This document shows, in pieces, positions 59,465 to 62,400 of a DNA stretch of 64,000 bases. The notes below the pieces were generated by a model. The model made no database searches. It was not told the DNA's origin and saw only the letters and a program-made list of their open reading frames with translations. Numbering within the stretch: position 1 is the first letter of the stretch; each line of letters starts with the position of its first letter. A program made the position numbers and the translations under genes. The DNA is taken from assembly GCA_020060105.1 (NCBI GenBank), contig JAGVAV010000002.1, positions 6,186-70,185 of the forward strand. Reading direction: 5' to 3'. Source of the DNA: Candidatus Woesebacteria bacterium (lineage in GTDB: Bacteria > Patescibacteriota > Microgenomatia > Woykebacterales > 2-01-FULL-43-14).

Positions 59465-62400
59465 TTAAGCAAAAATCCTAATTGATCATTAGTACGGCTT
59501 GGCTAAAATCGTTACCGACCTTACACCGGCCGCCTATCAACCTTGTAATCTTCAAGGGATCTAACTCCTTGATTGCTCAAGGATTTGACGAAACCTAATC
59601 TTGGGGAAAGCTTCGCGCTTATATGCTTTCAGCGCTTATCTCAACCAAACGTGACTACCCAGCACTGCGCCTGTTGGCACAACTGGCACATCAGAGGTTT
59701 GTCCATCCGGGTCCTCTCGTACTACGGACAGCCCCCCTCAAGTTTCGAACGCTCACACCGGATAGAGACCGAACTGTCTTACGACGTTCTGAACCCAGCT
59801 CGCGTACCGCTTTAATGGGCGAACAGCCCAACCCTTGGGTGGTACTACCCACCCAGGATGCGACGAGCCGACATCGAGGTGCCAAACCCTGCCGTCGATA
59901 TGAACTCTTGGGCAAGATAAGCCTGTTATCCCCGGGGTAGCTTTTATCCGTTAAGCTCCGGCGCACCCACATGCCACCGGAGGATCACTAAACCCGACTT
60001 TCGTCCCTGCTCGACTTGTAAGTCTCACAGTCAAGCACACTTACGCTTTTGCACGTCCAGTCTGATTTCCATCCAGACCAAGTGTACCTTTGGGCGCCTG
60101 CGTTACCTTTTAGCGGGCGACCGCCCCAGTCAAACTACCCACCAGACAGTGTCTTCCAGCCAGATAATGGCTTGGAATAAGCGTTAAGCTTTAAAAAGAG
60201 AGGTGTTTCATTGTCGTCCCCCAAAGCCCGAAGGCAAAGTGAGACTCCCTCCTACGCTACACAGTCTAAAACCCAACGCAGTGTCAAGTTGTAGTAAAGC
60301 TCCACGGGGTCTTTTTGTCCAGGTGTGAGAAGGCCGCATCTTCACAGCCACTTCAATTTCGCCGGGTCGATGGTCAAGACAGTTCTCAAGTCGTTCTGCC
60401 TTTCGTGCGGGTCGGAACTTACCCGACAAGGAATTTCGCTACCTTAGCACAGTTTAGCTTTGTTATCCGGCTTCGCCGGATCTTGCTTGTGCAAGATCTG
60501 TATGTCGCCATACAGCTCGGACTATATCATCCTCTTGAAGAGGGCTGGCGTATAGTCTCTGAGGATTTCCGTCTGCTGACGGATCTTTCCTGCTGATAAT
60601 CCGCACTCGTCGGTTTGTCACCGCGTCTTAACGACAAAGCGCAAGACGAGGTACCGCGAGATACTCGGGCTTCCCAGCATATAGCCAGCTTTTGCGTCTT
60701 TCGACGGAAGGATTCTAACCTTCGTAACTACAACTTTCGTGCGGCGAGAGTAGCCCAGCAAAGCTGGACACAGTTGTATCGCTACTTTGCGCGCTACATC
60801 CCTCGCGGTAGCTCGGATTATAGTTACTGCGGACGTTCACCGTGGCTTCAGTTAGAGCCTTAACAGCCCCTTCCTTAACCTTACGGCACTGGTCAGGCGT
60901 CACCCCCTATACTTCCCTTTTCAGGTTTGCAGAGAGCTGTGTTTTTGTTAAACAGTCGCTTGAGAATCATTTGCTGCGACCCCACTACGCAAAAGCTGCG
61001 TGGGGCACGACATCTTCCAAGGATACGTCGAGCTTTTTTGCCGAGTTCCTTAACCATCGTTCTCCCGATCGCCTTAATCTACTCGATCTGCCCACCAGAG
61101 TCGGTTTGTGGTACGGTAAGACTACTTCTCGCAACGAGCATTTTCTTGAAAGCTGAATGTCTCTTAATTGTCTTTGATCTTGCGATCGCAAACTTTTCGT
61201 CGTAGCTTAGATAAACGTGAATCAACGGATTTGCCTATCGCCACTTCCTTACTACTTAAACCCAATTACGTAGCTGGGCTAAGAACATCCACCTCTGTCA
61301 ACCCTTTGCGTCTTTATCGAAGTAACCTTGTAGCCGAATCTAAACGGCTTGTCCATCATCTACGCCTTCCGGCCTCAACTTAGGACCGACTAACTCTGTG
61401 CCGATTAACGTTGCACAGAAAACCTTGGGCATTCGGCGACCCTGTTTTTCACAGGGTTTACGCTACTCATACCGGCATTCTCACTTGACAGCACTCCAGC
61501 ACTCCTTACGATGTACCTTCAAGGCGCTGTCAACGCTCCCCTACCGCCCTTCGCCGAAGGCTTTGGGCGGCAAGCCTCTCTTCTCATTTCGTCTTTTAAA
61601 ACGAAACGCCTCCTTCTCTCTTTTGGACAAAGGAGAAAAGATTAGACTTACCACTCTAAGTCCTCGACGAAGAGCCCACAGTTTCGGTGTTAGGTTTGAG
61701 CCCCGTTACATTGTCGGCGCAAAGTCCTTAAACCAGTAAGCTGTTACGCACTTTTTAAATGGTGGCTGCTTCTAAGCCAACATCCTGGATGTCTAAAGAA
61801 CCTCACAACCTTTTACACTAAACCTAAACTTAGGGACCTTAACTGGTGATCTGGGCTGTTTCCCTTTAGACCACTGCGCTTAGCCGTAGCGGTCTGACTG
61901 TTCTAATAAACTTCACAGCATTCAGAGTTTGGTTAGATGCAAGAACTTGCGTCCCTACAGTCCATCCAGTGCTTTACCTCTGTGAGCACTTAGAACGCTA
62001 TACCTATATATATTTCGGGGAGAACCAGCTATCTCCGGGTTCGTTAGGCATATCACCTCTAACCACAAGTCATCCCAAAGCTTTGCAACGCTTACGAGTT
62101 CGGGCCTCCACTTCGTTTTACCGAAGCTTCACCCTGCTCATGGTTAGCTCACCCGGTTTCGGGCCATCTAGTAAAAACTTACGGCCTGTTAAGCCTCGCT
62201 TTCACTACGCTTTCACTCCAAAAGAGCTTAAGCTAACGCTTTTACTAGATACTCGCCGGTTCATTCTTCAATAAGCACACTATTGTTCTGGTCGGGAACG
62301 AGCCCGCCTTGCGGCAGACTACGTAGTCCCCACCATAGAACTCTAGCTGTTTGATAACGTACAGTTTCAGGTACTATTTCACTCCCCTCACCGGGGGACT

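Follow-up and report, generated by a model that had tools for sequence, protein, structure and literature searches.

Group I introns inserted after position 1917 of 23S rRNA (L1917 introns) are known from Coxiella, Synechococcus C9, Thermotoga subterranea, organelles, and a diatom plastid (PMC1995217, PMC11019260). In the type found in Synechococcus sp. C9, T. subterranea, and green-algal organelles, P5 is complex, P2 is lacking, and a LAGLIDADG open reading frame (ORF) runs from P6 into P7/P3/P8 (PMC1995217). In bacteria of the candidate phyla radiation (CPR), position 1917 has been catalogued as rRNA insertion site 23IS6 and assigned to group I by an Rfam model, and ORF-less copies have been noted among CPR rRNA introns (Tsurumaki et al. 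2024, PMC11270868); in passages of that survey we found no discussion of splice-site nucleotides or of a terminal A. In this current study, we examined a 64,000-nucleotide (nt) stretch of contig JAGVAV010000002.1 (assembly GCA_020060105.1), referred to as the window, in which the 23S rRNA gene carries a 365-nt insert at this same position, within the helix 69 loop. The insert is very probably a self-splicing group I intron of a Patescibacteria-like bacterium, derived from a lineage that often bears a LAGLIDADG gene and here lacking any endonuclease gene. A group I intron as such is expected biology for CPR bacteria; the exception is its last nucleotide, an A where nearly all group I introns end in G (omega-G).

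To our knowledge, the only published precedent without omega-G is Cbu.L1917 of Coxiella burnetii, an intron said to be of class IB2. It reportedly ends in A and self-splices both in vivo and in vitro, slowly (work ascribed to Raghavan et al., 2007 and 2009), and the terminal A is said to be unique to this one Coxiella intron. By these accounts, the window's intron is like Cbu.L1917 in its site after U1917, its group I class, and its terminal A; Coxiella reportedly has a second intron 34 nt downstream (L1951), whereas the window has none. With the LAGLIDADG-encoding L1917 introns, the window's intron shares its insertion site and a core that aligns with endonuclease-bearing relatives throughout P3-P9. 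It is a new member of this known type, from which it differs in having no endonuclease gene, an added P2/P2.1, an 84-nt extension of the P1 loop, and the terminal A. Introns at L1923 and L1931 are related ribozymes with the same conserved (G)UAACA motif close to their 3′ end and a LAGLIDADG gene of the same type, and they often stand in tandem with L1917 introns (loci L201, L209, and L210). Their insertion sites, however, are 6 or 14 nt farther downstream, and the ones recovered here end in the canonical G.

The helix 69 insert and its group I core

The 23S rRNA gene was identified on the minus strand at 59468-63011 by the full-length bacterial Rfam model (2546 bits), and measures 3544 nt compared with the 2925 positions of the model. 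The insert site was determined from two independent alignments, one to the Rfam large-subunit (LSU) model and the other a pairwise MAFFT global alignment to E. coli rrlH (locus L078). In the LSU alignment of 60380-60900, the sequence UAACUAU is followed by an unaligned stretch of 366 nt and then by ACUGUGCUAAGGUAGCGAAAUUCC; one of the 366 nt fills model position A1918, leaving 365 extra. The alignment to rrlH likewise gave 365 extra bases after E. coli position 1917, at the same window coordinates, 60819..60455 on the minus strand. The insert therefore lies between E. coli U1917 (window 60820) and A1918 (window 60454). A first-pass annotation, made from the sequence alone, had recognized an insert in the helix 69 loop at 60463-60818; it had the place right, but missed 1 nt at the 5′ end and 8 nt at the 3′ end; its length of about 353 nt must be replaced by 365 nt. 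Its statement that the extra length is local was borne out, as no further insertion of more than 9 nt relative to E. coli rrlH was found 3′ of the site.

The insert was then compared with the Rfam group I intron family RF00028 (Intron_gpI). The model matched 60498-60735 of the minus strand over model positions 1-253 of 253, with 58.0 bits (gathering score 50) and an E value of 4e-12 for the whole window; four relatives at the same site scored 51-70 bits. The covariance-model check that the first-pass annotation had proposed for its group I reading was thus positive, above Rfam's curated threshold. In addition, the minimum free energy (MFE) of the intron was -139.8 kcal/mol (z = -5.17), and 0 of 100 shuffled sequences folded as well; the resemblance to a group I intron thus goes well past what chance would give.

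To assess the core helices, P1, P10, P3, P4, P5, P5a, P6, P7, P8, and P9 of the window's intron were mapped onto an alignment (A2) of 36 distinct L1917 introns, comprising the window's own and 35 relatives from other genomes and metagenomes. Standard pairs occupied 96.8% of 2034 cells (57 pairs), compared with 80.5% in shuffled alignments, and none of 500 shuffles reached the observed value. When the pairing partners were slid by 1-3 columns, pairing fell to 33-42%. Changes on both sides were seen in 34 of the 57 pairs, and the covariation score was 0.471, versus 0.155 after shuffling and at most 0.077 after sliding. P3, P4, P6, and P9 were 100% paired among the 36 introns. Moreover, RNAalifold applied to five introns of the window's own type (the window's and those of loci L006, L053, L063, and L064, described below) independently gave P2, P2.1, P3-P6, P8, P9, and P9.2. 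Taken together, the covariance model and the covariation in homologous introns support the group I reading of the first-pass annotation and indicate that the insert is an atypical group I intron rather than another class of insertion.

All elements of the core lie on the minus strand. Two hairpins at 60695..60723, P2 (GAAGG/CCUUC) and P2.1 (CGUC/GACG), were obtained by RNAalifold from the five window-type introns with compensatory changes, and are missing in most other relatives. The 5′ strand of P3 (GCUGGC, 60684..60689) pairs with GCCAGC at 60544..60549, forming a pseudoknot with P7, and five of its six pairs show compensatory changes. Between them stands the P4-P5-P5a-P5b domain (60591..60679), in which P4 pairs 60674-60679 with 60591-60596, P5 pairs 60666-60669 with 60600-60603 (97% paired), P5a pairs 60654-60660 with 60606-60613 (95% paired), and P5b, obtained by RNAalifold on the window-type sequences, pairs 60643-60651 with 60621-60629; compensatory changes were found in the P4/P5/P5a set. 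The P6/P6a hairpin (60563..60590) closes with a 4-nt loop. As the first-pass annotation had noted, both strands of P7 are present: GAGACUA at 60553-60559, in which A 60558 is bulged (G-A-GACUA), and UAGUCC at 60519-60524, which together with J8/7 (AUGAUA) occupies 60519..60530. The guanosine-binding pair, G 60557-C 60520, is G-C in 36/36 introns, and the pairs adjoining it covary (UA/CG and AU/UA). P8 is the hairpin CCUCU-uca-AGAGG at 60531..60543 (94% paired, 5/5 pairs covarying). The three tight 3′ hairpins that had been pointed out earlier are also present, as P9 (CUGUAUG-gcga-CAUACAG, 60498-60515; 6/7 pairs covarying), P9.1 (AUCUUGC-acaa-GCAAGAU, about 60480-60497), and P9.2 (CCGGC-gaa-GCCGG, 60467-60479). 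The last two were identified by reading the sequence; of these, P9.2 but not P9.1 was also recovered by RNAalifold from the five window-type introns. The intron closes with the 3′ tail AUAACAAAGCUA (60455..60466), whose (U)AACA motif is conserved across the L1917 family. In the recovered L1917, L1923, and L1931 introns alike, (G)UAACA is kept 4-7 nt before the 3′ splice site, whatever the last base.

Splice-site pairing and the last intron base

The intron as a whole occupies 60455..60819, and both of its exon junctions face a single guide. The sequence AGUU followed by GUAGUUAC makes up intron positions 85-96 (window 60735-60724). Its P1 strand, GUAGUUAC (intron 89-96, 60724..60731), pairs with the 5′ exon strand GUAACUAU (E. 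coli G1910-U1917, 60820..60827), and its P10 strand, AGUU (intron 85-88, 60732..60735), pairs with AACU of the 3′ exon (A1918-U1921, 60451..60454). U1917 is the 5′ splice-site U and forms a U·G wobble with guide G 60731 in 36/36 introns. Five other P1 pairs are equally invariant, the seventh is kept in 35/36, and the outermost G-C pair in 29/36. In P10, the fourth pair changes in concert with exon position 1921 (CG 21, GC 5, AU 4, GU 1, UG 1). Because the two exons abut on the guide without a gap, ligation would fall between U1917 and A1918, making A 60455 the omega nucleotide. The near-universal group I trait of a terminal G is therefore missing from this intron; it does not strictly define the group, as Cbu.L1917 is accepted as a member without it.

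Since the intron and the 3′ exon both start with AA, the junction can slide by 2 positions, giving three equivalent placements, and the last intron base is A in all of them. A terminal G is not obtained with any placement in which the conserved loop UAACUAUAAC is restored, and no G occurs within 3 nt of the junction. We also considered G 60458 as omega-G, or shifted splice sites, and rejected both, as they would leave a non-canonical helix 69 loop and conflict with the register of P1 and P10. The first-pass annotation had reported neither a clean omega-G nor a clean terminal U. The U proved clean, as U1917 pairs with the guide G; omega-G is truly missing, and it was the terminal A that caused the difficulty in fixing the boundaries.

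The frequency of the terminal A was assessed in a sample independent of the last base. The genome and metagenome scans through which relatives were collected (see below) required a terminal A, so no frequency can be read from them. As an unbiased sample, we took eight contigs that encode homologues of one intron endonuclease and span the 3′ junction. The intron ended in A in 4/8 (L201, L203, which is the same contig as L009, L209, and L210) and in G in 4/8 (L199, L205, L211, and L212). A- and G-terminated introns have tails of equal length, which indicates a substitution at a homologous position. In a neighbor-joining tree of the core, from sampling skewed to A, the G-terminated introns fell at three separate places among A-terminated ones, which suggests repeated switches between A and G at the last base. 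All 36 aligned introns, whether they end in A or in G, retain the guanosine-binding G-C pair. These comparisons slightly favor the view that a terminal A has arisen repeatedly and is common throughout the L1917 family, in at least Patescibacteria, Chloroflexota, and Bipolaricaulota, and is not a peculiarity of Coxiella.

Between the 5′ splice site and the guide lies the P1-loop extension (intron 1-84, 60736..60819), which folds into hairpins. Among the five window-type introns, it varies in sequence and in length (80-139 nt); in most other relatives, the same region has only 4-12 nt. Two features of this region were noted. The sequence ACAACUGUG at 60769-60777 (intron 43-51) resembles the ligated-exon sequence UAUAACUGUG and could pair with the P10 part of the guide; akin AUAACUG motifs were found in L006, L053, and L063, and not in L064. 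In addition, the 13-nt GAGCUACCGCGAG near the intron 5′ end (60802-60814, intron 6-18) can pair, apart from one mismatch, with CUCGCGGUACCUC in P5a/P5b (60648-60660, intron 160-172; both on the minus strand), and this pairing dominates the MFE fold. It was significant only in the window and L006 (0/500 shuffles reached it), and not in L053, L063, or L064. As three of the five window-type introns lack it and it competes with the covariation-supported P5a, we rejected it as a conserved structural element; it might represent an alternative, inactive fold.

Relatives, endonuclease genes, and the host

Relatives were sought by scanning 185,579 species genomes for an A directly before the helix 69 3′ strand (A|AACNNNNCTAAGG...), which yielded 36 loci, and by scanning metagenomes with a similar pattern, which yielded 41. 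About 23 of the 36 genome loci, mostly Actinomycetota, proved on inspection to be L1923 introns, with a 5′ U, a terminal G, and the helix 69 3′ strand (AACGGU) at the start of the insert, and were excluded. About 14 metagenome matches were also set aside; these differ by a single nt, mostly an added A, within or beside the helix 69 loop and are probably assembly errors. The true L1917 introns retained (11 among the genome loci and about twenty among the metagenome loci) all have the guide GUAGUU, and after duplicates were merged the two scans gave 28 distinct introns besides the window's. Coxiella burnetii was absent from the matches of the species-genome scan. A scan of viral contigs with GTAACTAT-N{3,30}-GTAGTTA returned at least 120 chance matches, none of them in a 23S context.

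Several observations concern introns at neighboring sites. Many metagenome-assembled genomes of Acidimicrobiia and Solirubrobacterales (L002-L036, e.g. L017:3454-3729, L026, and L028) contain L1923 group I introns of 275-850 nt, some of which carry endonuclease genes; at some of these loci, several introns occur per 23S gene, with four core matches in L034. Tandem L1917 and L1931 introns were found in L201, L202, L209, and L210, and tandem introns also in L205, L207, and L212, separated by an exon of 14 nt (AACGGUCCUAAGGU) or 16 nt (AACGGUCCUAAGGUAG). A similarly short inter-intron exon has reportedly been found in Coxiella. Finally, L054:2848-3133, within an AT-rich LSU-like sequence, is a 286-nt insert that follows ...AAAUAACUAU, ends in CUA before AACGAUCC, and has no GUAGUU guide; this may represent a different kind of intron, from an organelle.

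Four independent assemblies (L006; L053, to which L075 is near-identical; L063; and L064) share the window's helix 69 stem, CGCAG/CUGUG, by which we judge them to belong to the window's own host lineage. Their introns end in CUA and have the long P1-loop extension and P2/P2.1 in common with the window. Between L006 and the window, the intron is 75% identical and the 23S gene 77.5% identical, similar values that fit vertical inheritance. L006 (OZ246414.1, a 915-kb chromosome), the closest relative of the window's 23S, is labelled 'uncultured Gammaproteobacteria'; its 23S is only 69.6% identical to that of E. coli, and the label is probably wrong. The best named relative of the LeuS protein encoded in the window is from a 'Patescibacteria group bacterium' (74% identity), with further named matches from Patescibacteria, Parcubacteria, and Chloroflexota. 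A patescibacterial (CPR) host is therefore plausible, in keeping with the CPR context suggested by the first-pass annotation.

The recovered relatives match the described LAGLIDADG-encoding L1917 type in their complex P5, the course of their ORF, and their lack of P2. In 24 of the 36 aligned introns, which are 720-855 nt long, a single-motif LAGLIDADG ORF (PF00961) begins within the P6 loop and extends into the core. Through the guide and P3-P9, these 24 introns can be aligned with the window's intron, which also gives BLASTN matches to their cores. In the window's insert itself, no ORF of note was found, the longest overlapping ORFs being of 52-82 amino acids and running into the exons; tblastn with 21 related intron endonucleases returned only short matches, located where those ORFs overlap the relatives' ribozyme core. 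The P6a hairpin, with its 4-nt loop, holds no endonuclease remnant. The earlier statement that no homing-endonuclease ORF is present was thus confirmed by the ORF list and by tblastn. Elsewhere in the family, near-identical ribozymes occur with and without the ORF (L037/L048 and L038/L050), and degenerate endonuclease remnants occur in L050 and L056; these show the usual cycle of gain and loss. Lacking an endonuclease gene, the window's intron has probably lost its mobility and is passed on vertically.

The minus-strand end of the window, as seen in an Rfam scan, is an rRNA operon, in which the 23S gene is accompanied by the 3′ end of the 16S gene (63731-64000), tRNA-Ile(GAU) (63424-63498), tRNA-Ala(UGC) (63097-63173), and the 5S gene (59278-59390), all on the minus strand. 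Compared with E. coli, four further insertions are present in this 23S gene (minus strand, window 62597-62737, 62299-62339, and 61560-61667), of 75 nt and 57 nt after about E. coli positions 276 and 285, 41 nt at about 540, the intervening-sequence (IVS) site in helix 25, and 108 nt at about 1171, the IVS site in helix 45. None of the four matched an Rfam family, and they resemble short insertions, other than introns, that have been described in 23S genes of CPR bacteria. The Rfam scan of the window also revealed a ribosomal protein L10 leader at 25877-26012 on the plus strand (61.9 bits versus a cut-off of 44), which is unrelated to the intron.

Proposed splicing and its alternatives

Splicing of the intron, and its accuracy, we infer from the sequence. 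The intron would be transcribed as part of the pre-23S rRNA, where the guide GUAGUUAC and exon G1910-U1917 would form P1, placing the U1917·G wobble at the 5′ splice site. An external guanosine bound at the P7 G-C pair would attack after U1917. The guide AGUU would then form P10 with A1918-U1921, bringing in the 3′ splice site, and the terminal A (60455) would take the usual place of omega-G in the second step. Joining of U1917 to A1918 would restore the canonical helix 69, CGCAG-UAACUAUAA-CUGUG, with the expected ligated junction ...GUAACUAU|AACUGUGC... (CUAU|AACUG). By analogy with the reported Coxiella Cbu.L1917 work, exon ligation is probably slower than with omega-G.

Several points weigh against this reading. 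Change of omega-G to A in the Tetrahymena ribozyme strongly impairs the second step unless the guanosine-binding pair is also changed, and in the window's intron that pair stays G-C despite the terminal A. An 84-nt extension of the P1 loop is unusual, and covariation does not support its fold. That all five window-type introns (5/5) end in A is biased by search patterns that required an A, so that A is not shown to be fixed in the clade; and the Coxiella precedent is drawn from a title cited in PMC11270868. The first of these points would suit an intron impaired in splicing, in which the first step at U1917 works and exon ligation is poor without omega-G, the 3′ site being freed by hydrolysis or a host nuclease, so that the 23S rRNA would be broken in the helix 69 loop or would rely on a host ligase or a protein cofactor. 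In model group I introns, mutation of omega-G to A blocks exon ligation, and other 23S insertions, at the classical fragmentation sites in helices 25 and 45, are tolerated in the host lineage. We nevertheless consider impaired splicing unlikely. Compensatory changes maintain P10, an element with a role in the second step alone, whose covariation with exon position 1921 among introns that almost all end in A argues that exon ligation is under selection. Moreover, terminal A is common in the L1917 family on otherwise intact ribozymes, the Coxiella terminal-A intron reportedly does ligate its exons, and a nick in the helix 69 loop, which forms bridge B2a, would probably be harmful.

Still less probable is an intron that is never removed and persists as a large helix 69 insertion in the mature 23S rRNA. 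A precedent exists in the unspliced L1931 intron of Simkania negevensis, according to a title cited in PMC11270868. Here, however, retention would split a universally conserved loop at the subunit interface. In addition, purifying selection, with compensatory changes, maintains the ribozyme core, P1, and P10, for which an insertion that stays in the rRNA would have no use. As for an rRNA expansion segment, or an RNase III-processed IVS, that merely resembles a group I core, the other non-intron insertions in the same 23S gene are in its favor. Such IVSs are simple extended stems in helix 9, 25, or 45 with no ribozyme core, whereas the window's insert has a full group I core in helix 69, which is not among the known IVS sites (PMC4990558). 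The score above the curated covariance-model cut-off, the complete P1-P10 architecture with covariation, and the LAGLIDADG homing endonucleases of its homologues add to this, and the expansion-segment or IVS reading is effectively refuted.

For annotation, self-splicing at L1917 implies that the mature 23S rRNA should be modelled with 60455-60819 removed, helix 69 being canonical after splicing. The terminal A and its frequency across the family are the only part that might merit a specialist's note, as they bear on the stringency of the omega-G requirement of group I ribozymes in exon ligation. Provided that splicing of these introns is accurate, the L1917 active site naturally tolerates A at the omega position, and the family would offer a ready-made comparative system, e.g. 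L209 (A) versus L199 (G), for studying nucleotide choice in the second step. For the organisms themselves, which probably have a single rRNA operon, the terminal A may mean slow rRNA maturation.

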